Shown here piece after piece: positions 2,617 through 63,156 of a stretch of 64,000 bases of DNA. The notes below the pieces were generated by a model. That model did not search any database, was not told the origin of the DNA, and saw only the letters and a list, made by a program, of their open reading frames with translations. Source of the DNA: Candidatus Poribacteria bacterium (lineage in GTDB: Bacteria; Poribacteria; WGA-4E; WGA-3G); assembly GCA_965215265.1 (NCBI GenBank), contig OZ244048.1, positions 704,001-768,000 of the forward strand, read 5' to 3'. A program made the translations under genes and the position numbers. The stretch's first letter is position 1. The number at the start of each line of letters is the position of its first letter.

Positions 2617-5061
2617 TTATTGTTTCTCCTCTGTTCCTCTACGTAACCGAAACGGGTCGCTTTTCACGATTTCTGTGATAAGGACAGAGCTTTTGTAATT
2701 TTTCAATTTTAGTTGGGTGACAATCTGTTCAACGGTTGGCCGGTCGTAATAGGCTAATCCCCTGCCTAAAGCATAGGTTAGCATTTTCTCCGTTAAGCAG
2801 CGTGCAAAATCCTGTTGCCTATCTATGAGAATCTGTTTTAAGTCTGTTATGTCTTCAAATGATGTTCCACCCGGCAAGACTCCAGTTGTATCAATCTCAA
2901 ATTCTCCGTCTTTCGTCCGGAATGCCCCAATTGCGTTGTAGTTTTCGAGGGCGAACCCGATAGGATCCATTTTTGCGTGGCAATTTGCACAACTGGGGTC
3001 TTCTCTGTGTTGTTCAAGACGTTGTCGTAAAGTCTTCGCGTTAATTACACCGTGTTCCTCCTCCAATTCTGGAACATCCGGTGGCGGTGGTGGCGGTGGT
3101 GCGCCGAGGAGTTGTTCCAAAACCCAACGTCCGCGTTTAACAGGCGAGGTACGCGTCGGGTTGGAGGTCGCTGTCAGAACGCTCGCTTGGGTAAGGATGC
3201 CGCCGCGCGAGCTACCTTGCAGCGCAACCCGCCGGAACCTTCTACCTCTAATTTTGTGACCGCCGGGAACGTTTGCCGGTTGTCCGAGCCAATTGCCTTT
3301 CGTATCTGCAATGCCGTAGTGGTTTGCCAAGGTCTGATTGAGGAATGTGTAGTCAGCATTAAGCAGCTCAAGGATACTCCGGTCCTCTTGAAAAATTGAT
3401 TGTAAAAATAACTCTGTCTCTTTCAACATCGCTGTTCTAAGTCTCAGCGTGAAGGTTGGAAAACGTTCGGCATCCGGAGCGACGGTTGCCAGTCGTTGAA
3501 TTTGTAACCATTGCGTACCGAAATTGCGTGCGAGTGCTGCTTTTGGATCCGCCAGCATCCGCTGAACTTCTGACTCAAGATTAGCAGTCAGTTGATTCTG
3601 CTTTGCAAGTTGAAGGAGTCTATCATCTGGCATGCTGCTCCACAAGAAGTAGGAGAGCCGCGAGGCGAGTTGAAACTCATCAATCGGCCGTGGGCTTGGA
3701 CTTTGGGAACGGTCATCTAACTCCAATCGGAAGAGGAATTTCGGTGAACAGAGGATAACTTTAATCGCTTCCTGGATGCCGGCTTCCCACTCTGAACCCT
3801 GCGCTTGGACATTTTCTACAAACTGAGCGAGTTGTTCTACTTCGGACTTGCTCGGTGGACGACGATACCCGCGGCGTAGTAGACGAGTCAATACTTCACG
3901 CGTCTGTTCGGTTTGCGGAATGCCTGGCGTGCAGGCTAAAATCTTGAAATGGGAGTCCGGTCTGGTTTCTAGTGGGCCTTCGGACCACAAGGTACGAACC
4001 CAGAGTTTGGCGTGCAGTTGCCCATCTGTTGGTTTAACCATTGCGATGCCCGCGCTTTCAATGCCAGCCATGCGGCTGATAAGGTATTCAATTGTCTGAT
4101 TTTTTTTCGGTTCACGAGCTGTAATTTCAAAGGTTTCCAAGATTTTGATTCTGTTATTTGATGCCGGGTCAACACCGAGGAGTTGTGCCAATTCGTCTGG
4201 AGTAGAGAATTCCTCTAACGTTTCGCCTTGAACGAATAGAGCAACTTCAACGGGGGTTTCAGCATCGGTTTCGGTATAAAGCGTGGCACGGTAGATAAGT
4301 TCAGCATCGGGGCTGAGTTTGAGGGATTTTGCATCTGTGGTAAAAGGACCCGATTTCCACGCTTCTGTTGCTGTCGGATCTAACACACGGAAACGTTCGT
4401 AAGGGACATCGTCGTGGCGCGGGTGCAGGTTCCGGCCGTTCACGTAACGTTTGGACGGCGGCGGTGCGTCCACGAGGATGACGCGGCTGGCGATTGCCTC
4501 GGCTGCTTCAAGATACCGTTCCATTAGGAGCGGGGACATACTTAACACATCACCGATATTATCAAACCCGTATCCGACATCATCGGCCGGGAAATTTTCG
4601 GTCGGGTCAAAATCAACGCCCAATAAGTCACGCACGCTGTTTTTATATTCAACTTTATTGAGGCGGCGTACTGTGATTCGTCCTGGATCCGGCTCCGCCG
4701 TGCGATCCGCGTGGGCAAAGATCGCTTCAACAGTCTCGATAAAAGACTCCGATTCTTCTAGAAGCGGTTGCTCGCTATCCGCTGGTGGCATAAAACCGGT
4801 AGATAGCATCTCTAAAACCGTTTCCCAAACATCACGATTTTCGATTAACGAACGATTATCTTCAAAGACATCAAGAGCAAGTTCGGCAGCAGGCTGATCT
4901 CCGGCATGACAACCGAAGCAGAACTGCTCCATGAAGGGGATGCCCTTTTGAGCAAAGTCCGGCGTTGTCTCCGTTCCTAAATTGGTGGTGAAGCTGAAGA
5001 ACACAAGCACCAAGCTCGTGCATAGATAGGGCGAAATGTCATTGAAGGACACAACGGGCAT
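2617..5061 (-). CDS. DUF1592/DUF1588/DUF1587-type (PSD/PSCyt) cytochrome c-like protein
   Basis: CFGCH and CANCH heme motifs; RRLNKVEY, LASRLSYFLWSSMPD, TSPVKRG motifs; usual partner of DUF1552. Confidence 0.88.
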   Translation of the reverse strand: MPVVSFNDISPYLCTSLVLVFFSFTTNLGTETTPDFAQKGIPFMEQFCFGCHAGDQPAAELALDVFEDNRSLIENRDVWETVLEMLSTGFMPPADSEQPLLEESESFIETVEAIFAHADRTAEPDPGRITVRRLNKVEYKNSVRDLLGVDFDPTENFPADDVGYGFDNIGDVLSMSPLLMERYLEAAEAIASRVILVDAPPPSKRYVNGRNLHPRHDDVPYERFRVLDPTATEAWKSGPFTTDAKSLKLSPDAELIYRATLYTETDAETPVEVALFVQGETLEEFSTPDELAQLLGVDPASNNRIKILETFEITAREPKKNQTIEYLISRMAGIESAGIAMVKPTDGQLHAKLWVRTLWSEGPLETRPDSHFKILACTPGIPQTEQTREVLTRLLRRGYRRPPSKSEVEQLAQFVENVQAQGSEWEAGIQEAIKVILCSPKFLFRLELDDRSQSPSPRPIDEFQLASRLSYFLWSSMPDDRLLQLAKQNQLTANLESEVQRMLADPKAALARNFGTQWLQIQRLATVAPDAERFPTFTLRLRTAMLKETELFLQSIFQEDRSILELLNADYTFLNQTLANHYGIADTKGNWLGQPANVPGGHKIRGRRFRRVALQGSSRGGILTQASVLTATSNPTRTSPVKRGRWVLEQLLGAPPPPPPPDVPELEEEHGVINAKTLRQRLEQHREDPSCANCHAKMDPIGFALENYNAIGAFRTKDGEFEIDTTGVLPGGTSFEDITDLKQILIDRQQDFARCLTEKMLTYALGRGLAYYDRPTVEQIVTQLKLKNYKSSVLITEIVKSDPFRLRRGTEEKQ

Positions 5062-5205: not shown

Positions 5206-7755
5206 CTAATCATCTACATTAATCCCCAATTGGATAAACGCTTCTCTAATCTTATCCTCGTAATCTTGTTCTGACATTTCACCTCCGGTTGCCCGTAGTT
5301 CTAATTGAAGGTTGTTGAAATGCCGTTGTAGCAAGTTCATCACGCCCATGAGCCCAGCCACTTGCCCTTTCGGCACGGTGAATTGCAAGTGAACTTGGTT
5401 CCGTCCACTTGGTACCGGGGGTGACAAATCAATGCCTGCTTCGGTATCCTTGTTTTCATCTTCCTCAATGTCTGGTTGAGGTATATCCTTAATAGAATAG
5501 TCATCATTACCATCTTTTTTTGCTTCCTGCTGAGTGATGCAGATGTCTTCACGAATTATCACCTCATTTTCTGAAAAAGCGACGGCGAGTGGGTATTCTT
5601 TGAAATAGTGGTAGACCGGCTCGCCCCCTTCTAATTCCCCCAATCCGAACAACCCTTGTTGCACCCCCTCCTGGATTCCTAATTTCCATACCTCTTGACT
5701 GATAACGCGTGCCTCACCCGGGGTCTGTATGCTCGATTGATATAACTGTGTTGTAGAGACTGATTCGTTGTGGGTAAGGTAGCGCTCCTGAATCACTAAC
5801 GGATGGATGCTTTCGAGAATCTCCTCACCTAATTTCAACTTATCGTAAACCGCTTTGTCAAGTTTGCTCTCATCATACGTTGGAACCCCCAAATCTTCTT
5901 TTTTCAGTCCGTCTTTTGTAGGAATGAATAAAGTCCGGTAATACCGCCTCAGTATATGATTCAGACCATCTTCCGCTTTTTTCAACTCGTCCCGAACTTT
6001 CTTCTGTTGTTCTGGCGAGAGTCGAAGCGTTTTATCACTTTTAAGAGCTCGGTAGGCAATAAGTTTTTCCAACTGATTGTAAAAGTCTGTCTGCTCTGGT
6101 TCCGATGGTACGAGGAAGAAAAGCGTATTTCGGTTTGCCCTAGGTATGTCTCCCTTTTCTTCCAACATGCTGTTCATCAATGCCTCGTCGTGTACCTTGA
6201 GGAGAATCAGTTTCAATTCAACGTTATCTGGAATGTCTGAGCCATCTTTTGGCCAGATAAAGGTTTTAAGCTGTCCGGATGAGAGGTTGTTTTTCAATGC
6301 TGTTTCCTCAACCTTCTCTATTTCCGGGCGGGTGATATTCTCCATTCGGGTGAGCAAGATATGGTTGAGATTGGGCTGGTTGGTGAAATAACTCCTTTTC
6401 TTCTCCTGCTGCAGGTAAAACAGTTTTCCGCGCAGCAGCTCGCTGGCTTCGGCAACAACGCTGGCTGGATGCTCTGTTGTAGTTGCGCTCCGTTTAATCT
6501 CCCTGGGGGAGGCCCCCTTCTCGGTCCCACCTGAAAAAGAGTACAGAAAAACGGTTCTCGCAGCGCGGCTCCCCAATCTGAATCCTTTATACGCATTACC
6601 GAGTTGGGTATCCACCTGCTTTGCCCCAGCATTTTCACCCGTGATGTCCGCGGCGATAACGCTGTCGTACTCCTGACCGATGTGCTTGAGTAACTCCCGC
6701 CGAATTTCCTGAACATCGAAATCGAAATCAGCCACACTGATGTAAGGAATCGCTTCTTCTCTAACCGCATTCAGTACAATTGCCAACAAGCGGAGCACCC
6801 CGCGTGTACGCTGAAAATTCGGGAAACTCCCCCATCGCTGATACAGTACGTCAACCGTTTCAGGGAGAAACGGATAAGCAGCCTCAAACTGCTTTTGATA
6901 AACGGACGGTTCCATGCCGGGCGGCAGCAGCGATTCGCTAGCGGCGTACTCCATAAACTCACGGATTACTTCCGCAGCAGCACCCTGATTAATCGACGCG
7001 AAAAGCCGATGCCTGATGACTTCGCTGATTTCATGCTCCTGCACAGGGGTATGAATTTTTTCCACTCGTCCTCCCACATGTTGTAACTGGTTAAAGAACC
7101 ACTCAGCTTGTTTGCCATAATGTTCCATACGACTGGATGGCAGTGTGAAGACGAGGGCGACCTTTTCTAAGATGCCTACAGCTTCTGTCAACTCCTGCAT
7201 AAACGCCAACGTCTGTGATGCCAACGTGCTATCTCCCACTTGCACCCCGGCGGCTTTGGTAAGATATTCCAGCACCTCATCCATCAAGATGAGCACGGGT
7301 TGTTTCTCTAGGAGCAATTCGTAAATGGCATCGCGCCCCGGTGAAGTCCTGCTATCAAAACGGTTTAGTTTCCCCGTCAGCTGCTTTTCAAGCATCGCCC
7401 AGAGCGTATCGGTTGCACTCATCGGTGTCCCGACGAGCACTACTCTATTTGCATCCCATGCACCCGCTTTGTGATACATTGCAATCAGCGCGTGCGTCTT
7501 ACCACCGCCAAAGGGGGTCTGCAGTTGAATGACTGCGTCCCTGCCCAGACCGTTTAGCCGCCTTTCAACAATAGAAAGGAGTCGATTGAGTTCTTTGGTC
7601 TCGTACGTCTTCTGAAAGAATTGCGTGGGGTCTTTGTACTCATCTGGTGCTTCACCTCTGAACACCTGCCACAGGTCCGCAGCGAATACGTCCAGCGTGA
7701 GACTGCCCTCTAAAATATCGCGGTGTGGCACCGCAATGGTATGGAATGGCTTCAT
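5206..7755 (-). CDS. DUF499 family AAA+ ATPase (defence-associated)
   Basis: FAADL, Walker A GGGKTH, Walker B LILMDE, YPFLPE, FQRTRGVLRLLA; AAAGGAG RBS before ATG 7755. Confidence 0.88.
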   Translation of the reverse strand: MKPFHTIAVPHRDILEGSLTLDVFAADLWQVFRGEAPDEYKDPTQFFQKTYETKELNRLLSIVERRLNGLGRDAVIQLQTPFGGGKTHALIAMYHKAGAWDANRVVLVGTPMSATDTLWAMLEKQLTGKLNRFDSRTSPGRDAIYELLLEKQPVLILMDEVLEYLTKAAGVQVGDSTLASQTLAFMQELTEAVGILEKVALVFTLPSSRMEHYGKQAEWFFNQLQHVGGRVEKIHTPVQEHEISEVIRHRLFASINQGAAAEVIREFMEYAASESLLPPGMEPSVYQKQFEAAYPFLPETVDVLYQRWGSFPNFQRTRGVLRLLAIVLNAVREEAIPYISVADFDFDVQEIRRELLKHIGQEYDSVIAADITGENAGAKQVDTQLGNAYKGFRLGSRAARTVFLYSFSGGTEKGASPREIKRSATTTEHPASVVAEASELLRGKLFYLQQEKKRSYFTNQPNLNHILLTRMENITRPEIEKVEETALKNNLSSGQLKTFIWPKDGSDIPDNVELKLILLKVHDEALMNSMLEEKGDIPRANRNTLFFLVPSEPEQTDFYNQLEKLIAYRALKSDKTLRLSPEQQKKVRDELKKAEDGLNHILRRYYRTLFIPTKDGLKKEDLGVPTYDESKLDKAVYDKLKLGEEILESIHPLVIQERYLTHNESVSTTQLYQSSIQTPGEARVISQEVWKLGIQEGVQQGLFGLGELEGGEPVYHYFKEYPLAVAFSENEVIIREDICITQQEAKKDGNDDYSIKDIPQPDIEEDENKDTEAGIDLSPPVPSGRNQVHLQFTVPKGQVAGLMGVMNLLQRHFNNLQLELRATGGEMSEQDYEDKIREAFIQLGINVDD

Positions 7756-7820
7756 GTACTTATCTCCTTTAGGAATGTTTTTGCTAAGAATGTTCGAATA
7801 TCCAACGTTCACGGACGGAC

Positions 7821-10463
7821 CTAAAAGAGCCGCCCTTGTTTAATCTTTTCTCTAATCCGTTCCCGCCCAGCGAGAAAACCGTCTAATAGTTTCTTCTCCC
7901 GGCTCTCAATAGGTAAAGTTTCGGAGATCGCTTGTGCAACGCGATAGAACGCCTCCCGATCGCCCCAACCGCTTTCTCTCAGAAGAGCCAGCATCGCATC
8001 CCGTTGGTTCTTTTCCCACAGACGTAAAGCGTGGTGCAGCACGTCGATTAACTCATCACGGTTCGCAAGGTCAGCAAATGTTCGCGCTTGCGGGCCGAGG
8101 ACACGGATAAACTGCTTCTCTTTCATAATAAATCCCTTCCCACCCCACGTTTGTGCAAGGTCAACGCCACACGATTGTGCTAACTTCCGGGCCTCGTCAA
8201 AAAGGACACGCGTCTCCCTATATGCCCAACGCCAAAGGATATAGAAACGGGTGAGGTCTGAAATGTCATCTGTGAACCCGTTGTCCAGAATTTGGTGCAC
8301 CGCGTAATCAGTCGTAATCGTCCGCACATCTTCAAGTAGACGATCCGCACGAATAACCTCTCCCTCAAAGTCCATTACCTTCTCGTATTTACCGAAAACC
8401 TCTATGGCAGCACCGATGGCGGCAATGAAGAAATCCGCACCGCTCAGACCTTCCCGCCAAAGCCGGTGGAGTTTCTTATTAAGGTACGTTGCCATCTCAG
8501 TTTTGATGTCGTTGTAGAAACCCGTCGGTTCGCGTGCCATCTTCCGCGCGCCGATGTAGATAGAAGATGCGAGAACCGCAGATTCTCTCGCACGAAGACG
8601 CGAGACCATCTCCGTATGCAGAGGCCAGGCACCCGTCATAACCAATCCGGAATCGAGGAGCGAGTTAATCAACGTCTCCCAACCCTCAGTCGATTTGTGT
8701 GCATAGACGATGACGACGACACCGCTCGGTTTCAAGACACGATGAATTTCTTGGAAAGCTTGCTTGAGCGACTCCTCAAAAGACTGCTTTCCCGCCTCAA
8801 AACCGCCCGGACCGTGTGAATACGCAACAGTCTCGTTTGTCTTCGGGGTTAACGGCGTAGAGAAGAGCTCAGGATAGACATCGCCTAATGTCCGCTTCAA
8901 CCAAACATAAAAGAAATCAGAGAGATAGGAATACGGCACGTTGTCGTAGTACGGCGGATCGGTAAATACAGCATCAAAGAAGTTGTCCGGATACAGTAAG
9001 TTCGCCGCTGAGGATTGGGTAACGTTAGCCTTATTTGGACTGGCGTATGAACAGTGTGCTATCACTTTCAAATAGGATTGGCCGCCACTCTCAAAACTGC
9101 CAGAAGATCCGCTGAATGGATTAGCTTCTGCATAATCCCAAATCATTGGTAGCGCCTGTCTTGCATAAAGATGTGTAATTGATTCTGAACTGTTAATCCA
9201 TCTCGAAAGTGTATTGCTACAGGCAGCAAGCATGTCTAATCTCAATGCCAAATAACTCGCGACTGCCTTCGAATAGTCCGCATCAATTCCTTCTCCTATC
9301 ATCCGTTGATACGCTGCTCTCACTTTATCTACGAAGGTTATGAGTGCCAACTTTTGCCTGGCGTTGAAGAGATCTCCCCATCTCAACATGCCGTAACCCT
9401 GTATCCGAAAACCTAATGTGCCTCTGGGCGGTAAGGGCTCATCCGGCACCGGGTCCATACCCCACGCCAATTCCAACTCCTCCTGCTTCTCTGCAAGGCA
9501 GGCCTCAGCAGATGCAAAGACAGCCAGGTCTGTATCCGTTGCTCCGCGATAACGTTTCCCTTTCGTGCCACGCTTGTGTGTCACAACGGCAACTATGCGT
9601 GCTCCTGCTTTTCCGTCTTGAAACAGTTTGCGGGTTGTTTTGGCCGCTACTGTAGTTCCACAGACAGGACAGACTGCCACTGCACGTGAGACGGTGCCTT
9701 TTGTTGGATCAAACCCAGCGGGCATCTCTTGATACCCGTTACCGACAATTCTGAATTCCACCTTTCCGTCTTTACTGTAAGGATAGAGCGCGACCTTCTT
9801 TTTTGCTTTCTGTGCCAGCCAGAATTGGCGCATGAGCGGAATTTCTGCACCGCACAATGGATTCTGACACGGTATCGTCCGCGCCCAAATCCAGCCCACT
9901 GGTATTGAACCGTCTGTCTCTTGCAAGTAGAACCTGCCCAATTCCTTTTTTGCTTCTGCAAGTACCCATGCGCTCCATTTCTTGACATCCTCCAGCAATG
10001 GGTTTTTAAACTCCTCAAGCATGCCGTATTTCTGCGGATATTCCAAGGTGCATTTCTGAATTAACACCGCGACGGGGTTGAGATCATTGGAATAGGTTTC
10101 ACATCCAAGCCGCAGTGCCTCCAGCGGAATTGCCCCACCGCCGCCAAAGGAATCGAGCACCTTCGGTGGCACGCCTCCGTTTGCTTCTAGGATTTCTTTC
10201 CGCGCCTTTTCGATCACGACGGCATTTAGCGAACTTTCCTATCTTGAGAGATTGATGATAAAATTCCGTTTCCGGTTCCAATCGTCGGTATCCTTCGGCG
10301 GTGGAATCAAGGCGGCATAGGCAGTCGTGCGTGAGGAGGCGAGCGGGCGTCGCGCCCACCAGATATGAAGTCTAGAGATGTGTCCGTGACGGATATACCG
10401 CTCGTGGGTGGATTCGGCGGAGATTTCTTTGACTGGGAAACTCTCTTCAATCAGACGTTTCAT
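7821..10463 (-). pseudogene. DUF1156 adenine-specific DNA methyltransferase interrupted by an in-frame TAG (10239-10241)
   Basis: ORF 10239-10463 (LHIWWARRPLASSR) is in frame with ORF 7821-10217 (DSFGGGG motif I, DPPYY motif IV, Cys zinc ribbon); junction reads [16 protein letters not shown]. Confidence 0.85.
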
Positions 10464-10631
10464 TTCATTTCCTTAAGGGGTCCAGTACACGGTGCCGTTC
10501 CTGCGAATACAAGAAGATTACAAGCAGAAATATGATGGTACGCAACAACGGTCCGCGAGGGAGACAGTAAACGCGCAGAGGCGGTGAGAGGATTAGGATT
10601 GCACAGACAAGGATGCTGTTTGTGCAAATAC

Positions 10632-10814
10632 TTAACTTATATATAGAGAAGGGGGGGGGTAAATTTGAATTAACTTACCGTTAAAATAGACAAGAGCGTG
10701 ATTCAACGCGGTAGTTTCGCCCTTCCACCTTGAATAGAACTCGTTGAGGAGGTGGAAATCCTGCCCACTCTCTTTTTGGAATGTTGTGGTTTTGTCAGTA
10801 CTACAATGTTTCAT
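10632..10814 (-). CDS. putative leader peptide (60 aa) with C9 tract encoding PPP
   Basis: ATG just downstream of a promoter; C-terminus ALVYFNGKLIQIYPPPSLYIS* aligns without gaps to the leader at 62567-62725; RBS weak. Confidence 0.5.
   Translation of the reverse strand: MKHCSTDKTTTFQKESGQDFHLLNEFYSRWKGETTALNHALVYFNGKLIQIYPPPSLYIS
10651..10659. repeat. G9 homopolymer (C9 on transcribed strand)
   Basis: Direct reading. Confidence 0.95.
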
Positions 10815-10827
10815 GTCATCTAACTCG

Positions 10828-10912
10828 ATAATACACGAAGAGCAAAAAGTTTGCAAAAACAACTATTTTTTTTATTTATCTATATTTTACCAAAAACACG
10901 CGGAAAATACAA
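10828..10912 (-). promoter_or_regulatory. tandem sigma70-like promoters upstream of the methyltransferase leader
   Basis: TTGCAA-17-TATTAT (10828-10856) and TTGTAT-17-TAAAAT (10884-10912). Confidence 0.55.
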
Positions 10913-11140
10913 ATCTTTTTTTAGTCAATTTTCTGCTGCCTAGGTTGCTTGTCCTTTCTAGGAAAAAATAAATTTACTAAAGTGTCGAAACCACTCAGGC
11001 ACGTTCGTTTATCTTCTTGCACGTCCGAAGGGTGATTGCGTGATGTATGTCTTGTTTGTCTGTAGCTGCTCTGTGCCCAAATCTACGGACAGCACCCTAT
11101 TGTCTCACTTCAAGGGCTCATCTGTAATTGTTCAACTTGT

Positions 11141-14100
11141 TTACTCTACTGGGATGCCTTTTTCGCGAATTTCGCCTAAAGAAATCTGATAGCGAACCAC
11201 TTCAATCGTTTCTTCAGGGCGCGTCTGTTCTGCGGGATTCTGGAGAATATAGAGCTCGGGCTGTATTGCAGCATTGAGGACAACGTAGAGGAAATAGTCT
11301 GATTTGAACTGTTTAGCCTTAAACCACTCGTTTTGTGTCAAAGTCACTGCCCCAAGTTGTGCCCGCGCTTTGACTTCGATGTACCGTTTTACCGCTGCCT
11401 TATCCGTTGAGCGTACATCGAAACCTAAATTTTGTGCGGAAACATCTTCGGGTGTGCGTCCTTGTTCACGTTCATAATCCATTGTTACTTGCATGCCGAT
11501 TTGCTCAATCTGCGGTTCGCTTTTCATCTGTGCTTCCGCCATTGAAGTAGGAATTACCCGAATTGCACTGACAAAATTGGGTGTATTTATCGTGAGAGCT
11601 TTCTCTTGTGCGATGGTTTTCTCCAACTTCTTAAGAGCAGATTCATAGTCTTGCTTCTGTTCTTTTTTGTTATGTATGGCCAAATCGACGTTTTCGCCTT
11701 CACTCTGGCGTTCATAGAGTTTAATCAGTTCACCGTCCAATTGGAGAATGAAACTTTCAAGCGAGGTACGTCCATATTTTTCTTTTATGAGTGCTTGTCG
11801 CTCACGTTCAACCGCGAGCTCACATTTGTAATCTTCGAGGACAGGTATTAATTGTACCGTACACTGATTTCTCAAAGTTTCGATGTCCATTGCTTCCGTG
11901 CGTTGTGTGCTTTCTGCCAGATCCCAAATGGTCGCAGGGTCAATAGATTCAAACGTTTCTGTATCGGATTTGACGTAAAACGCAAAGAGCCGGGTGCCAA
12001 CGGTATGACCTAAGCCGTCGCGGATTTCACCTTCATAGAATAGAATAATGCCATCCATTTCCCCGTCGGGGTCTTCAAAAACTGCACCCTGTTTTAGACA
12101 GTCGGATAATTCGTTTTTTACCCAGTGGAGTATAGCTTCGAACAGCGGGTGCCCAAAAGAGATGAATTCGGCATCGGGGTTTTTGAAAGCGAATTCCTTG
12201 TCGAAAGTGGCTTTGGAGTATCTTCTTGCCAGATCTCCGTGTTTGCGCTTGAAGCTATCTTCTTGAGCAAGTTTACGGATCGAGAAGGGGATACTTTCTA
12301 TTGCCAGGAATCCGTCTCTGCGAGTTCGCAAGGTGCCTTTTAGTACTGCGAAGGCTTTTCCTACAAAAGCCTCGGTGTATTCAGGAATAAGACGGTGTTC
12401 ACGGGCACGGTCTGCCATTTCGTTGATGCGGGTGTAGTCAATGTAGTGGGTAGCAAGGCTTTCTCCTAAGTTGTTCTTGACTTGGTTGATATAGTCCGTA
12501 TCGACCTCAATGTCAATTTCCGCGAGAATTTCATCGAGGCTTTTCGCACTGGCTGCTGCTTCCCGTAACAGATGTTCAAGGTCTACCCCATAAAGTACTT
12601 CGTTCAATACGTCGAAAACCTTATCATTGCCCAATGCACTTTTGATTTCTTCAATCTTTTTGAAAAGTGTACTCAAGACCTGGCCTTCTCGAGTGTCTTC
12701 GGCGACAAGATTGTAGACGTATACTTCTCGCGTCTGTCCATAGCGATGAATACGTCCCATCCGCTGCTCTAACTGATTCGGATTCCAAGGTAAGTCGTAG
12801 TTAATCATCAGGTGGCAGAATTGTAGGTTGATTCCTTCACCTGCGGCTTCGGTTGCGATGAGTATTTCAGTTTCGTTTTTGAATTCGTTCTCGGCTGCGA
12901 TTCGGTCCTCATGTGCCAAGTTGCCATGAATTACTGTGACGGTATATCCCCAAGCCGTCATCTTACCCTGAAGGTATGAAAGCGTATCTCTGGATTCGGT
13001 GAAGATGAGAATCTTTTCACCGGCGAAATCAGTCTTCCATTTATCAAGCGTCTTCTTTAGTTCCCGTACTTTGATTTCGATTTCACCTTCGATGATTTCT
13101 TGCGCGGTGTGTGCCAGCATTTCAAGGGTTTCGATTTCACGTCTCAGTTCGTCCTGATTTTCTGCAACCGAAAGCGTCTCCCAAATTTCTTCTTTCTCCC
13201 ATCTTTCCTCTTCACTCAAATCGTTAATTTCCTCAAAATCAATGAAGTTAACAGTTCTCTTTTCCTCTTCTACGTCTTCGAGCAATTCCTGAAGTTTTGT
13301 TTTCCGTCGTTTAAGTGAATTGCGTAATGCATAGGTACTGGAAGCCAACCGTCTCTGTAAAATCACTAGTGCAAATGCCACGTTGTTCTTTTTATCTTTC
13401 GTCAATGCTTTGTTATATTGACTATTGACATAGTCAGAGAGTTCGTTGTAGAGTTCTTTTTCTTTCGGTGAATCAACACCTAGATTAAACGGTAGCGTTT
13501 GAACATGCCTGGGAAGAAAGAGCGGTTTACCTTCAAAATCCTTCAAATCTTCTTTCACACGCCGAAGGAAAAGGGGGTTATCTTTCGTCGCAATAGATTC
13601 AGTGAGCATTTCACTGTTTGCAAAGAATCCGGGTTCAAGGAGATCCAAGAATAACCTGAAATTCTCTGGATCGCCCTTATGCGGTGTTGCCGTGAGAAAT
13701 AACAGATGGGTTGAGATTCTGGATAGGGTTTCTCCTAATTGATACCTGCTGGTTTTCTTCAACTTTTTCCCATACTGGTATGCTGCCATTTTGTGTGCCT
13801 CGTCCACGACAATGAGATCGAAGTGGGCCGACCCAATTGCAGGCATCACATCATCACGTTTTGCGAAATCTATGGAAGTAATCAGATGCGTTTCACGCGT
13901 CCAAAGGTTCTCACCGGGTTGTGAAGCAAGAACCGCTCGATCGATGATAACAAAATTTTCTTCAAACCGATCCTTCAGTTCACGTCGCCATTGGTTCTTG
14001 AGGTGCCCCGGCACAACAATCAAAATTCGGTTAATGATGTGCCGGAGTTTTAGTTCCTTGATAATTAGACCTGCCATGATTGTTTTACCAGCACCGGGGT

Positions 14101-14470
14101 CATCTGCAATCATAAAGCGGATTCGTGGAAGTTTGAGAATATGCCCATAGACCGATTCCACCTGATGTGGTAAGGGATCCACTTTAGAGGCATTTATCGC
14201 GAAAAGCGAATCATAGAGAGCAGCATATCGGTATCGTAGTGCCTCAAGACTCAGGAACACGTGGGGTGCCAATGCCGTGAAGTCCAGTGCCAGTTTCTCT
14301 GTCTGCAGTGCGTCTGCTTCGTTCCGGAGCATCAATTGGTCTATATGTCCGCCGGAATCGATGGTGGAGCCAATTAGATGGATATACTCGCCTCTCTCTT
14401 GCCATAGGTCAATTTTTACCGGTTCGGGCCATTTATTAGATTTTACGATGTCCCCGCTTTTAATATTCAT
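11141..14470 (-). CDS. SNF2-family helicase with C-terminal DUF3883 PD-(D/E)xK nuclease
   Basis: DDPGAGKT, DEAH, TATPH, GEGINLQ, EQRMGRIHRYGQ; C-terminal GFDVRS..YIEVKAR. Confidence 0.9.
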   Translation of the reverse strand: MNIKSGDIVKSNKWPEPVKIDLWQERGEYIHLIGSTIDSGGHIDQLMLRNEADALQTEKLALDFTALAPHVFLSLEALRYRYAALYDSLFAINASKVDPLPHQVESVYGHILKLPRIRFMIADDPGAGKTIMAGLIIKELKLRHIINRILIVVPGHLKNQWRRELKDRFEENFVIIDRAVLASQPGENLWTRETHLITSIDFAKRDDVMPAIGSAHFDLIVVDEAHKMAAYQYGKKLKKTSRYQLGETLSRISTHLLFLTATPHKGDPENFRLFLDLLEPGFFANSEMLTESIATKDNPLFLRRVKEDLKDFEGKPLFLPRHVQTLPFNLGVDSPKEKELYNELSDYVNSQYNKALTKDKKNNVAFALVILQRRLASSTYALRNSLKRRKTKLQELLEDVEEEKRTVNFIDFEEINDLSEEERWEKEEIWETLSVAENQDELRREIETLEMLAHTAQEIIEGEIEIKVRELKKTLDKWKTDFAGEKILIFTESRDTLSYLQGKMTAWGYTVTVIHGNLAHEDRIAAENEFKNETEILIATEAAGEGINLQFCHLMINYDLPWNPNQLEQRMGRIHRYGQTREVYVYNLVAEDTREGQVLSTLFKKIEEIKSALGNDKVFDVLNEVLYGVDLEHLLREAAASAKSLDEILAEIDIEVDTDYINQVKNNLGESLATHYIDYTRINEMADRAREHRLIPEYTEAFVGKAFAVLKGTLRTRRDGFLAIESIPFSIRKLAQEDSFKRKHGDLARRYSKATFDKEFAFKNPDAEFISFGHPLFEAILHWVKNELSDCLKQGAVFEDPDGEMDGIILFYEGEIRDGLGHTVGTRLFAFYVKSDTETFESIDPATIWDLAESTQRTEAMDIETLRNQCTVQLIPVLEDYKCELAVERERQALIKEKYGRTSLESFILQLDGELIKLYERQSEGENVDLAIHNKKEQKQDYESALKKLEKTIAQEKALTINTPNFVSAIRVIPTSMAEAQMKSEPQIEQIGMQVTMDYEREQGRTPEDVSAQNLGFDVRSTDKAAVKRYIEVKARAQLGAVTLTQNEWFKAKQFKSDYFLYVVLNAAIQPELYILQNPAEQTRPEETIEVVRYQISLGEIREKGIPVE

Positions 14471-35965: not shown

Positions 35966-36051
35966 TGGGCGAGGAGGGACTTGAACCCTCACGAGGCGTA
36001 ACCCCAATAGATCCTAAGTCTATCCTGTCTACCAAATTCCAGCACCCGCCC
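35966..36051 (-). tRNA. tRNA-Leu(TAG)
   Basis: Cloverleaf with long variable arm; ATAGA-CTTAGGA-TCTAT anticodon arm. Confidence 0.95.
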
Positions 36052-39569: not shown

Positions 39570-39655
39570 TGCCGGGAAAGGGACTCGAACCCTTACGCGC
39601 AAAAAGCACACTAGAACCTGAATCTAGCCTGTCTACCAAATTCCAGCATCCCGGC
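39570..39655 (-). tRNA. tRNA-Leu(CAG)
   Basis: CTAGA-TTCAGGT-TCTAG; long variable arm. Confidence 0.95.
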
Positions 39656-61064: not shown

Positions 61065-61652
61065 TTATTCTACAAACAACGTCGGTTCGCCCAACCCGAC
61101 GTGGTCACAAAAGGTACCTTCTAACTCGTCTACTAAGATTGTGAGTTTATCTGTTCCTTTAGGTATATTGAATTCAATATACGTTCCATTATGTTCAGGG
61201 CGTAATTCTTCCGATTGGTATATTAATTTCTGATCGGAATATGCTAAAAGTCTCACTTTACCGGCACAGGTTGGGTGGGTGATGGCGAAATATGTGCCGA
61301 AGCGAGCCGGTTCTATTTCTGAAATATCATACTTAATAACACTGGGCGCATGCACATATATCCAGTGTTCCCAGACAAACATTTCTGGGAAGTTTTGGAA
61401 AGCTCCAGGTTTTTCTGTTCGTGTGCCATCTGGATATTGCTCCCACACATATTCTCTCCAGCCCCCCCATTCGTCTATCCCATTGACAGGGATTAAAGAA
61501 TTTGCAGAGTTGTGTGTAAGAGTAAGAAGTATATCGGCAGGTGGCGACACTACAGGCATCACCGCTTTTTTTCCCCGATCGCAGCTCGTGATGGAAACAC
61601 ACACCACTGCGATTAGCAACAAGTTCAGAATGATTACACTTTTTCTATTCAT
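61065..61652 (-). CDS. lipoprotein with NPCBM/NEW2-like domain
   Basis: Lipobox ITSC; HWIYVHAPS.I.YDI..IEFNIP.G..L.I.V..DH...GEP.L; AGGAG RBS. Confidence 0.7.
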   Translation of the reverse strand: MNRKSVIILNLLLIAVVCVSITSCDRGKKAVMPVVSPPADILLTLTHNSANSLIPVNGIDEWGGWREYVWEQYPDGTRTEKPGAFQNFPEMFVWEHWIYVHAPSVIKYDISEIEPARFGTYFAITHPTCAGKVRLLAYSDQKLIYQSEELRPEHNGTYIEFNIPKGTDKLTILVDELEGTFCDHVGLGEPTLFVE

Positions 61653-61662
61653 TAAAAACTCC

Positions 61663-62319
61663 TTATTTTGTAGTTGTTGAAGTTCCTGCAAACAATGTCG
61701 GTTCGCCAAAGACGAAGTGGTCACACAAGCTTCTTTCTAACTCGTTTACTTCTATTATGAGTATCTTTGTCCCTAAAGGTATATCAAATTCAATATACGT
61801 TCCTGAATCCTGAAGACGCAATTCTTTGGATTGGTATATATATTTCCGATCTGAAAATGCTAAAATCTGCATCGATGCAGCACCGTTGTTCTCAGGATTG
61901 ACGAGGGCGAAATATGCACCAAACCGAGTCGGTTCTATTCCTGAAATATCATATTTCAGCACGCTGGTTGCATGTGAATATATCCAGTGCTCCCAGAAAT
62001 GCCTTTCTGGAAAGTTTTTGTAAGAAGGTGGTTTTGGTGTTTGTGTGCCATCTGGTCTTTGCTCCCACACCCCCGCAACCCAGCCACTCCATTCAGGGAA
62101 ATGATTGATGGGGATTAAAGAATTTGCAGAGTTGTGTGTAAGCGTAAGGAGAATATCATCGGCAGGTGGTTCCTCGGCAGGTGGTTCTGGTGGCACGACT
62201 ACATACCTCACCTCTTTATTTCCGCCACATGAAGTGAGCGACACACACAACACTGCGATAAGCAACAAGTTAATTATCGTTACCACGATGCCTTTTTTCG
62301 GGTTCATCCAATCTTTCAT
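61663..62319 (-). CDS. lipoprotein with NPCBM/NEW2-like domain (tandem paralog)
   Basis: Lipobox LTSC; shares DILLTLTHNSANSLIP and later blocks with 61065-61652. Confidence 0.7.
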   Translation of the reverse strand: MKDWMNPKKGIVVTIINLLLIAVLCVSLTSCGGNKEVRYVVVPPEPPAEEPPADDILLTLTHNSANSLIPINHFPEWSGWVAGVWEQRPDGTQTPKPPSYKNFPERHFWEHWIYSHATSVLKYDISGIEPTRFGAYFALVNPENNGAASMQILAFSDRKYIYQSKELRLQDSGTYIEFDIPLGTKILIIEVNELERSLCDHFVFGEPTLFAGTSTTTK

Positions 62320-62462
62320 TTCAAAATATCCTTTCGGACGATGTGTCCGTTGTCGATGCGGTTATCGCATCGGTTAGGTTTATAAGTCATTATCGGTTTG
62401 ATTGCGGGCGGGCAGGCGTGCAGGGGCCCGGGGCCTCCGCAAGTGAACACCGCACGCACAAG

Positions 62463-62512
62463 AAAAAAAGCCCGCAACGGCACCCACCGTCCGAGACGGG
62501 AGGCGTGCAGGC
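62463..62512 (-). terminator. putative intrinsic terminator/attenuator inside the leader
   Basis: GCCTGCA..CCGTC-TCG-GACGG..TGCGGGC followed by T7. Confidence 0.5.
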
Positions 62513-62566
62513 ATAAGAAAGCAGCGACGAAGGTAGATGTAGATGCTGCCTGAGTTAATAAAAGGG

Positions 62567-62725
62567 TTAATTTACGTGAAGTAAGGGGGGGGGGGTCAAT
62601 CGTCTTAACAGGGACTTAAAACACACGACAGCACTGCGTACGCACGCGTTCGCACCAAAACTACAACCCCGCACCACGGGGCAGCTCGTTCTACTTATGG
62701 GGTACACGGACTCTCGGTATTTCAT
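62567..62725 (-). CDS. putative leader peptide (52 aa) with C11 tract encoding PPP
   Basis: MKYRES..AVVCFKSLLRRLTPPPLLHVN*; homologous to 10632-10814; too short for the ORF track. Confidence 0.5.
   Translation of the reverse strand: MKYRESVYPISRTSCPVVRGCSFGANACVRSAVVCFKSLLRRLTPPPLLHVN
62585..62595. repeat. G11 homopolymer (C11 on transcribed strand)
   Basis: Direct reading. Confidence 0.95.
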
Positions 62726-62760
62726 CTGTTCGATTTTTCCCTGTCTGATTCAAGTGAATG

Positions 62761-62903
62761 CATTTTATTAGAAAACAACGTTTTTTGTCTGACTCAAAGG
62801 TTAGTTTGCATTATCGCATAACGAACGTTTGTTTGTCAACTCTTTTTTTCCGAAATAAAAAATCAACGAAAACATTCTATCAGAAAACAACGCTTTTTGT
62901 CAA
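62761..62903 (-). promoter_or_regulatory. three related tandem promoter-like units
   Basis: TTGACA-18-TAGAAT (62874-62903), TTGACA-18-GATAAT (62810-62839) and a degenerate copy at 62761-62791. Confidence 0.6.
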
Positions 62904-63156
62904 ACTTTTTTTTGCCTGACTTAGATGTATTGAATCATAACAACGTAAATCTCTGGCGAGATTTGTGCTAAGGCGTTCATTAAAGCAGGCGGTGTTGCGC
63001 TGAAATATACAAATATCTGCCATGGGTGGCGAGCATGGAGAGATAACCCCAAAAAGAAAAGCCGCCGATTACGAAACAGGAAATAGGCGGTTTTTCTATT
63101 AGGAGCTCACAGATGCCTGAGACTCATGTTCTCTGCGTTTCCACTTTTCTCAAATT

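Follow-up and report, generated by a model that had tools for sequence, protein, structure and literature searches.

The window analysed here, a stretch of 64,000 nucleotides from a Candidatus Poribacteria genome (GCA_965215265.1, contig OZ244048.1, positions 704,001 to 768,000), carries three genes, hmaA, hmaB and hmaC, which PADLOC and Pfam together identify as an Hma defence system. The genome is 4.83 Mb long, lies on one contig, has 48% G+C and is 95% complete. A gap of 677 nt separates hmaA from hmaB on the minus strand and contains a short leader open reading frame (ORF) with a run of nine cytosines (C9). We lean slightly towards reading this run as a copy of a portable switch cassette that is specific to the lineage and works by slipped-strand mispairing, in which the phase of the leader would gate hmaB and hmaC. 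The larger finding is the cassette itself, a conserved and strand-polar poly-C element of Poribacteria, together with its deployment in leader ORFs. The arrangement upstream of hmaB was first noticed in a sequence-only reading, whose description of the sequence is sound; its interpretation as a leader gate is plausible, and its real support comes from other loci of the genome that have the same layout.

The frame relations around the tract are as that reading described them: a 60-aa leader containing C9, early stops with C9 or C8, and a long open frame with C10. In the assembled C9 state the leader frame stops at the TAA at 10634-10632, which lies inside the heptamer GTTAAGT, and with C8 it stops at the TAA at 10639-10637, 5 nt earlier; both phases end within at most 6 codons. 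With C10 (or C7) the frame stays open for 61 codons and closes at the TGA at 10467-10465, one base short of the hmaB ATG. This ATG is followed by an A, giving TGAaATGA, and stops are thereby present in both non-gene frames at the start codon. The C9 run sits 187 nt upstream of the methyltransferase gene, in the separate leader ORF. The hairpin TTGCACA..TGTGCAA pointed out downstream of the tract is also present in the minimum-energy fold. Coordinates of all features are collected in Table 1.

Long C or G runs are abundant in this genome far beyond chance, with 66 runs of length 7 and 44, 46, 4 and 6 runs of lengths 8, 9, 10 and 11, respectively (100 runs of at least 8). When the runs were oriented by their C strand, GTTAAGT was found within 30 nt on the 3' side of 48 of the 100 runs of at least 8, compared with 0.11% of 20,000 random windows and 1 of the 66 C7 runs. 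Clustering of the ±100-nt flanks gave 48 flank families; a loose form of the motif occurs in 26 of these and the exact GTTAAGT in 19, and across all 48 families neither the heptamer nor its complement was ever seen in the other three positions and orientations. Looked at from the side of the heptamer, 51 of 409 genomic GTTAAGT sites have a C run of at least 8 within 32 nt upstream, against none for three control heptamers. Moreover, the lengths of the runs beside GTTAAGT are bimodal, falling at 1-5 and 8-11 with almost none at 6-7.

The consensus of the cassette starts with (G/A)ATTTA, the A at -1 being present in 23 of the 26 motif families. It continues with C8-11, then TT and a G-poor spacer of 2-20 nt (mode 9), and ends in GTTAAGT followed by A and a T-rich stretch, often as GTTAAGTA(A/G). 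The latter holds stops in two of the three frames (TAA, TAR), and its TTAA core is a stop on the opposite strand as well. On the reverse strand TTTA reads as a TAA immediately after the G run, and the G strand thus has TAA twice. Because GTTAAGTA(A/G) and TTTA put stops beside the tract on both strands, the flanks form a compact filter of reading frames whichever way the cassette is turned. This rationalises the richness in stops, but the occurrence of the same heptamer in unrelated genes and genera is not accounted for by stops.

Two other readings of the motif were rejected. A promoter of fixed spacing, on either strand, does not fit the distance between tract and motif (2-20 nt) or the sum of tract and distance (10-29 nt). 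A start codon formed as NTG before TTAAGT is suggested by the T found at -1 in 16 of the 26 families here, but this feature is not general in 49 Poribacteria loci.

The genes that carry the cassette were classified by Pfam searches on the ORFs adjoining the tract, for 20 family representatives and the hmaB locus (21 families). DNA methyltransferase or restriction-modification (R-M) domains were found in 19 of the 21 (N6_N4_Mtase, Eco57I/MmeI, Type III Mod, Type ISP, HsdS and DUF1156), and the remaining two are ComEC and a 13-copy family of leucine-rich repeat (LRR) lipoproteins with the tract in the signal-peptide region. Three placements are seen: inside a coding sequence with the C strand as sense strand, inside a coding sequence in reverse, and upstream of genes (11 families). 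The C strand is the sense strand in 19 of the 26 motif families; in the seven families with reversed cassettes inside genes, the complement of TTTA provides a TAA that directly follows the G run. In the assembly the tract interrupts several genes, for instance a type IIG enzyme with a divided Eco57I domain and ComEC, whose DUF4131 domain extends over two frames. ComEC, the DNA-uptake channel (locus L017 3380-3650, genome ~3228900-3229180), is split by a C8 cassette but uninterrupted in 11 relatives, and the cassette forms a 66-nt insertion in a variable loop. It is flanked by an exact direct repeat of 13 nt (18 nt with one mismatch). The ComEC frame is out at C8 and in at C9, and competence may be phase-variable through this cassette.

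Differences in tract length are found at several other cassette loci. Among paralogue pairs with at most 2 differences in 200 flanking nt, 3 of 8 differ in the length of the tract (9 versus 8 with identical flanks, 8 versus 9, and 11 versus 8), and 7 of the 11 multi-copy motif families are variable; one family-2 paralogue has the interrupted run CCCCTCCCC. HmaB itself provides a further example, since one other Poribacteria chromosome holds HmaB paralogues with C8, C23 and C9 inside the coding sequence (L074, L075 and L079, near 3886-3910), and a fourth HmaB record (L077) has C13. These tracts occupy a conserved Pro-rich site of DUF1156 (..AAL(V/A)..PPP..), and only the copy with C23 is in frame. 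The same site in the hmaB of the window reads CCA CCG CCG and is not slippery.

At the locus upstream of hmaB, the tract is C9 (G9 on the plus strand) in all three contigs covering 10651-10659, from three studies, a weak result because contigs cannot reveal minority tract lengths. One of these contigs belongs to a strain with 10 substitutions in 2 kb (0.5% diverged), and the contigs of a fourth run end at the tract, which is a gap in cover and not evidence for heterogeneity. As would be expected of a simple-sequence-repeat contingency locus, the homopolymer is of slippable length and over-represented in the genome, and a change in its length would alter the frame of the leader, with a presumed effect on hmaB expression. 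Length polymorphism was seen at other cassette loci and not here, where all three contigs have C9.

The support for a leader gate comes mainly from the 11 upstream-type families, in which we located the first stop of each tract phase relative to the main start. All 11 have one frame that is open for at least 43 codons past the tract. In families 2 (4 of 9 copies), 7 (3 of 3), 11 (2 of 2) and 17 (the hmaB locus), the tract is preceded by a leader ATG at a distance of 43-51 codons; one phase meets a TAA 0-16 nt past the tract, and another phase is open for 61-148 codons and ends as TGAnATGA or TAAnATG on the main ATG. A leader stop that would abut the main start in one state is thus predicted at the hmaB locus and in families 2, 7 and 11, and the suggestion that one tract phase always ends at the next start codon holds for the copies counted in these four families. 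Families 15 and 31 have the same layout, but on doubtful TTG starts. The suggestion fails in the other 5 of the 11, families 12, 23, 28, 35 and 40, where the long frame, of 72-167 codons, falls 9-93 nt short of the start.

For comparison, we used a null set of 927 genes of at least 200 aa with at least 240 nt of unannotated upstream DNA. An open frame of at least 60 codons ending at a -4 or +1 stop was present before 31 of the 927; 11 of these 31 genes lie behind a listed C tract and two more behind leaders of the family-2 type. The leader peptides show no relatedness between families, and the codon scores of leaders and extensions range from -0.16 to 0.07, compared with 0.20 ± 0.08 for genes and -0.09 ± 0.08 for open off-frames. 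The first 51 codons of the leader at the hmaB locus are the exception (0.171). Because the peptides are unrelated and their codon usage is non-genic, the leader and extension frames look like tracks for ribosomes rather than proteins, and we regard this as the strongest support for the leader-ORF gate.

In the mechanism that we propose, ribosomes starting at the leader ATG would halt at the stop of the cassette with C9 or C8, and with C10 or C7 they would read on through 61 codons as far as the TGA one base short of the hmaB ATG. Slippage during replication would shift the tract from one phase to another. The long-leader phase could raise hmaB and hmaC by termination-reinitiation coupling at TGAaATGA, or it could keep the C-rich, G-poor leader RNA covered by ribosomes, so that Rho cannot load. 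In the short-leader phases the RNA would be naked, Rho could terminate transcription, and hmaB and hmaC would be down. Rho is present in the genome. The C-G skew of the extension is +0.20 at this locus, where the 95th percentile of upstream regions is +0.19, and it reaches +0.43 and +0.36 in two type ISP families (7 and 11). In family-2 leaders the extension holds a hairpin that resembles a terminator and has a T run, which suggests attenuation. The assembled C9 tract would correspond to the 'OFF' state named in the sequence-only reading; the AAGGA Shine-Dalgarno of hmaB makes this assignment conditional.

The methyltransferase gene of the sequenced strain is itself damaged. An in-frame TAG at 10241-10239 forms codon 75 of hmaB, at a position that is Trp (LSKWENSLN) in all six closest homologues. 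In one of four sequencing runs compared, a C replaces the T at 10240 and gives TGG, and the contigs of three studies have TAG. Because the homologues have Trp and the contig of one other strain has TGG, hmaB in the sequenced strain is, judged from these comparisons, a recent nonsense pseudogene (TGG>TAG). With the tract in the short-leader phase and a nonsense codon in hmaB, the system looks shut down and decaying. The nearest HmaB relatives, with 65-74% identity, are in Candidatus Poribacteria records.

Several observations weigh against a live leader gate at this locus. The claim of such a gate stands in that the layout recurs at independent loci of the genome, but the tract here is invariably C9 in the three contigs and hmaB is broken. 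The AAGGA Shine-Dalgarno belongs to hmaB itself, and the leader is perhaps dispensable; the main ATG starts of families 2, 7, 11 and 17 also carry Shine-Dalgarno sequences. The leader ATG at 10814 lies ~14 nt past the TATTAT -10 match and is without a clear Shine-Dalgarno. The tandem promoters of the sequence-only reading come down to one sigma-70-like match and one -10-like element read by eye, and the promoter scan gave 2 overlapping matches versus 1.3 ± 1.0 in shuffles, a count not above chance. As a whole, the 236-nt leader RNA folds no better than shuffles (z -0.91), and no intrinsic terminator was found in it, the hairpin at 10599-10627 being without a T-run. The gene-like codon score of the first 51 leader codons leaves room for the capture of part of a gene. 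The genome has MutS and MutL, and slippage is not unchecked; no RNA runs containing the locus were listed on search. Beyond this locus, the five families whose long frame ends before the start also count against the gate, and 6 of the 11 upstream-type families have no C-over-G skew; because of the latter a single mechanism is not established. Loss of mismatch repair as a cause of tract instability was also considered and rejected, MutS, MutS2 and MutL all being present.

One competing explanation is that the leader is a relic, the stranded 5' end of a former phase-variable gene moved here by rearrangement, with the long C10 frame a leftover or a product of chance and hmaB and hmaC independent of the tract. 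We consider this unlikely, although it would agree with the gene-like first 51 codons, the uniqueness of the leader in the genome, the C9 in all three contigs, the Shine-Dalgarno and pseudogene state of hmaB, and the lack of such a leader in the nearest HmaB relatives. A search with phmmer among 1.84 billion representatives returned no homologue of the leader peptide, nor did Pfam or PADLOC, and blastn and tblastn found none in the genome and 80 related loci. The sequence-only reading had offered a version in which the lost gene encoded a secreted protein; the hydrophobic stretch that prompted it lies in the extension, whose codon score is 0.021 and non-coding, and with no homologues this version is not supported. 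Moreover, a non-coding open frame of 61 codons that ends exactly at TGAaATGA is expected in ~2% of upstream regions, and the same layout occurs in three other unrelated families. Poly-C is the preferred ligand of Rho, and one may ask whether the tract acts without regard to frame, as a Rho-loading, protein-binding or promoter-proximal site in the 5' untranslated region (UTR) whose length tunes expression gradually. The presence of Rho, the 19 of 26 motif families with C on the sense strand and the G-poor extension are consistent with such an element. It seems distinctly improbable all the same, because the RNA carries poly-G in the 7 of 26 families that are reversed inside genes, the variable spacing to GTTAAGT rules out a fixed promoter geometry, and the phase-placed stops and the long third frame ending on the ATG are left unexplained.

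Recombination offers another account, in which a site-specific recombinase or a tiny mobile insertion would have used the cassettes as targets or left them as footprints, with the C run incidental. GTTAAGT agrees with GTTRRRY, the consensus of integron core sites, cassettes are seen in either orientation, and the ComEC insertion is flanked by a direct repeat. We nevertheless judge this very improbable. The search for an integron integrase with TIGR02249 gave 0 matches at E <=1e-5, the only tyrosine recombinase match genome-wide is broken (PF00589), and the only reverse transcriptase of the genome belongs to a diversity-generating retroelement; integron, tyrosine recombinase and retroelement origins were rejected on these grounds. 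Unlike integron sites, the motif has ACTTAAC upstream in 0 of 48 families and no attC-like inverted partner. Target-site duplications were likewise rejected: a direct repeat of at least 12 nt is present in 1 of 26 motif families (null 1.3% per locus), only the ComEC repeat is both long and close, family 39 has a distant repeat of 11 nt, and the others match random expectation. An artefact of homopolymer calling is barely conceivable. Long-read assemblies can miscount homopolymers by one base, but G9 is found in contigs of three studies, many Poribacteria records carry the cassette, in assemblies from short reads as well as from long reads, the runs beside GTTAAGT have a bimodal length distribution, and paralogues can differ by 3.

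Returning to the cassette as a slipped-strand switch, its distribution extends beyond the present genome. The pattern C8-T-N4-16-GTTAAGT has 45 occurrences here. Within the same family 9 of 24 further genomes contain it, as against 0 of 16 in three sister families; a backwards control gave 0 everywhere. In the relatives it lies in LRR, Eco57I-type and Type III Mod genes and in a DUF4007/HNH locus. A scan for TTA-C8-N1-20-GTTAAGTA in one genome per prokaryote species gave 91 stretches, and among the 80 matches listed there are 49 from Poribacteria, 11 from Spirochaetes (mostly termite-gut Treponema) and 8 from Bacteroidales. The control with a reversed 8-mer gave 31 stretches, of which 0 are from Poribacteria, 2 from spirochaetes and about a dozen from Bacteroidota. 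The treponeme sites have C9-C21 and a spacer of 6-8 nt followed by GTTAAGTAGTTTT, with 1-4 distinct sites in each genome and none for the control. At the treponeme loci read (Treponema and Spirochaetes metagenome-assembled genomes; L128, L146, L157, L159, L162, L165, L171, L175, L185, L200 and L203), the run is flanked by a short stretch coding for the N-terminus and by a signal peptide that is hydrophobic and often of the lipoprotein type, and at most of them it falls in the 5' coding region of a lipoprotein-like gene. Hence the cassette is found in Poribacteria and probably also in termite-gut treponemes.

The strict sequence and strand polarity of the cassette would imply a specific molecular partner, if it is a dedicated frame gate. 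Under this tentative and rather doubtful proposal, Poribacteria and apparently also termite-gut treponemes would share a portable cassette, TTTA-C8-21-spacer-GTTAAGTA[A/G], placed in either orientation in genes for defence, competence and surface proteins, within the coding sequence or a leader ORF; in its leader version it would be a heritable switch of whole operons by coupling or polarity. The partner could be a protein that recognises GTTAAGT and creates, maintains or destabilises the C run, or the cassette could arise by targeted insertion. A partner at the DNA level, or spread of the cassette by recombination, may account for the conserved heptamer.

Phase variation by repeat slippage is textbook knowledge for a few pathogens. 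Phase-variable R-M genes with homopolymers have runs of at least 8, a frame set by run length and many loci per genome (PMC5909438). Such genes and phasevarions include Type III mod and Type IIG genes in Helicobacter, Campylobacter, Neisseria and Haemophilus, and G-tracts are described in C. jejuni. The cassette loci likewise lie in R-M genes. They differ in that the hmaB tract is in a separate leader ORF and that the TTTA...GTTAAGT flank is conserved across unrelated genes in both orientations. In classical translational coupling, the stop of an upstream frame overlaps the start of the next gene. Translation of an upstream ORF (uORF) is also described as deciding transcription or translation of a downstream gene via Rho, for instance at mgtA, mgtCBR and topAI-toiL (PMC12360218). 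The input there is physiological (ions, antibiotics), whereas the input proposed for hmaB would be a heritable frameshift in the uORF. A phase-variable route to Rho termination is known from invertible DNA elements, fimS and C. difficile flgB, and the passages of that review consulted name no repeat tract in a uORF (PMC12360218).

Simple-sequence repeats in promoters or 5' UTRs, for example in Haemophilus influenzae, act through promoter spacing or through 5'-UTR structure and RNase III (PMC12721329). The hmaB tract resembles these in lying outside the coding sequence of the gene behind it, but its frame layout points to translation of a leader ORF. The poly-G tracts of the Treponema pallidum tpr genes are a further case of a repeat outside the regulated coding sequence. 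As regards the Hma system itself, all three genes match the PADLOC models in their usual neighbourhood, and the locus differs from the usual arrangement in the nonsense codon of hmaB and in the 677-nt insert with promoter-like sites, leader ORF and poly-C cassette that splits hmaA from hmaB. Our searches of open-access full texts returned no account of a coupled uORF with a repeat tract, of the GTTAAGT cassette or of phase variation in Poribacteria, nor any of phase variation by repeat slippage in sponge symbionts.

With around a hundred candidate switches, concentrated on genes for R-M, Hma, competence (ComEC) and LRR surface proteins, an uncultured symbiont would be able to maintain many states of defence and methylation at once within a clonal population. 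The leader version would amount to heritable uORF attenuation and could gate whole operons with the coding sequence untouched. A strand-polar cassette of ~30 nt that is conserved over unrelated genes, genera and possibly phyla is not predicted by slippage and selection, and its conservation leads to the idea that contingency loci may be produced or preserved by some factor.

Table 1. Features of the Hma locus, its leader region and the second cassette locus, in coordinates of the window
Feature	Position	Strand	Basis or remarks
hmaA, SNF2/DEAD helicase with NOV_C, first Hma gene	11141..14470	-	Pfam Helicase_C, ResIII, SNF2-rel_dom, NOV_C; PADLOC HmaA 1.3e-201
Extended -10-like TGGTAAAAT, possible upstream promoter	10884..10892	-	Read by eye; absent from the consensus scan; unproven
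Sigma-70-like match TTGCAA-17-TATTAT, ~14 nt before the leader ATG	10828..10856	-	9/12 matches; count not above shuffles
Leader ORF in the C9 state, 60 codons + TAA (ATG 10814-10812, TAA 10634-10632), ending ..IQIYPPPSLYIS*	10632..10814	-	ORF list
Putative switch cassette: TTTA 10663-10660, C9 10659-10651, AT-rich spacer 10650-10637, GTTAAGT 10636-10630	10630..10663	-	Sequence and motif statistics
C9 homopolymer (G9 on + strand), presumed slippage site	10651..10659	-	G9 in 3/3 covering contigs
Hairpin TTGCACA (10627-10621)/TGTGCAA (10605-10599), directly after the cassette	10599..10627	-	Minimum-energy and centroid folds
61-codon extension frame, read only with C10/C7, pyrimidine-rich, ending at TGA 10467-10465	10465..10650	-	Frame listing, skew, codon score
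hmaB start region: AAGGA Shine-Dalgarno 10474-10470, TGAaATGA 10467-10460	10460..10474	-	Sequence
hmaB, DUF1156 DNA methyltransferase (ATG 10463-10461), in-frame TAG	7821..10463	-	Pfam; PADLOC HmaB 1.4e-113
hmaC, DUF499 AAA+ ATPase	5206..7812	-	Pfam DUF499; PADLOC HmaC 1.2e-121
Leader region of the second cassette locus ('copy 2'): promoters TTGACA-18-TAGAAT and TTGACA-18-GATAAT; leader ORF 62725-62567; C11 62595-62585 (G11 on +)	62316..62903	-	
Terminator-like hairpin of 'copy 2'	62489-62475	-	

The second cassette locus of the window had been taken for a homologous leader 52 kb away. What the two loci have in common is the cassette of ~30 nt (TTTA/TTGA-Cn-TT..TTAA) and the frame logic; blastn finds no similarity between them and their leader peptides are unrelated. 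This second leader is a member of a nine-copy family with tracts of at least 8, and its open phase ends as ATGA on the start of a lipoprotein gene at 62319. Behind it lie two tandem paralogous lipoprotein genes (window 61065-62319; 219 and 218 aa, with blocks of 78-91% identity), and leaders of the same family also precede the relatives of these genes at other places in the genome. A promoter module of ~60-125 nt, composed of an A-run, TTGACA, 17-18 nt and TAGAAT or GATAAT with TG, is scattered over the genome in dozens of copies, and genes are often preceded by two or three such units in tandem (for instance, window 62760-62960; genome 4063452-4063617 and 4176349-4176622; L124 3725-4048).

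The diversity-generating retroelement lies at 1412000-1426000 of the genome (L124), and its reverse transcriptase (7881-8945) is the only one in the genome. Repeats at 5740-5854, 7063-7177 and 9033-9147 consist of a template-like copy after the reverse transcriptase and two copies resembling variable repeats, each at the 3' end of one of two paralogous target genes. The first of these genes lies behind a poly-C leader of family 2, with its tract near L124 4350, and the hypervariable target protein may therefore also be phase-gated. The single Pfam Phage_integrase match is interrupted and lies at 4117565-4118038, beside a family-1 tract; no XerC/D-like recombinase was found at E <=1e-3 in this 95%-complete single-contig genome. 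The cumulative GC skew is irregular and never returns to zero, and the origin and terminus cannot be placed from it. Rfam at its gathering threshold reports only five tRNAs in the window, and nothing meaningful in 10300-11200 at E <=5. A segment of 73 nt at 39579-39651, not reported by Rfam at that threshold, is 79% identical to the tRNA at 35975-36047 and may be a divergent or decayed tRNA.

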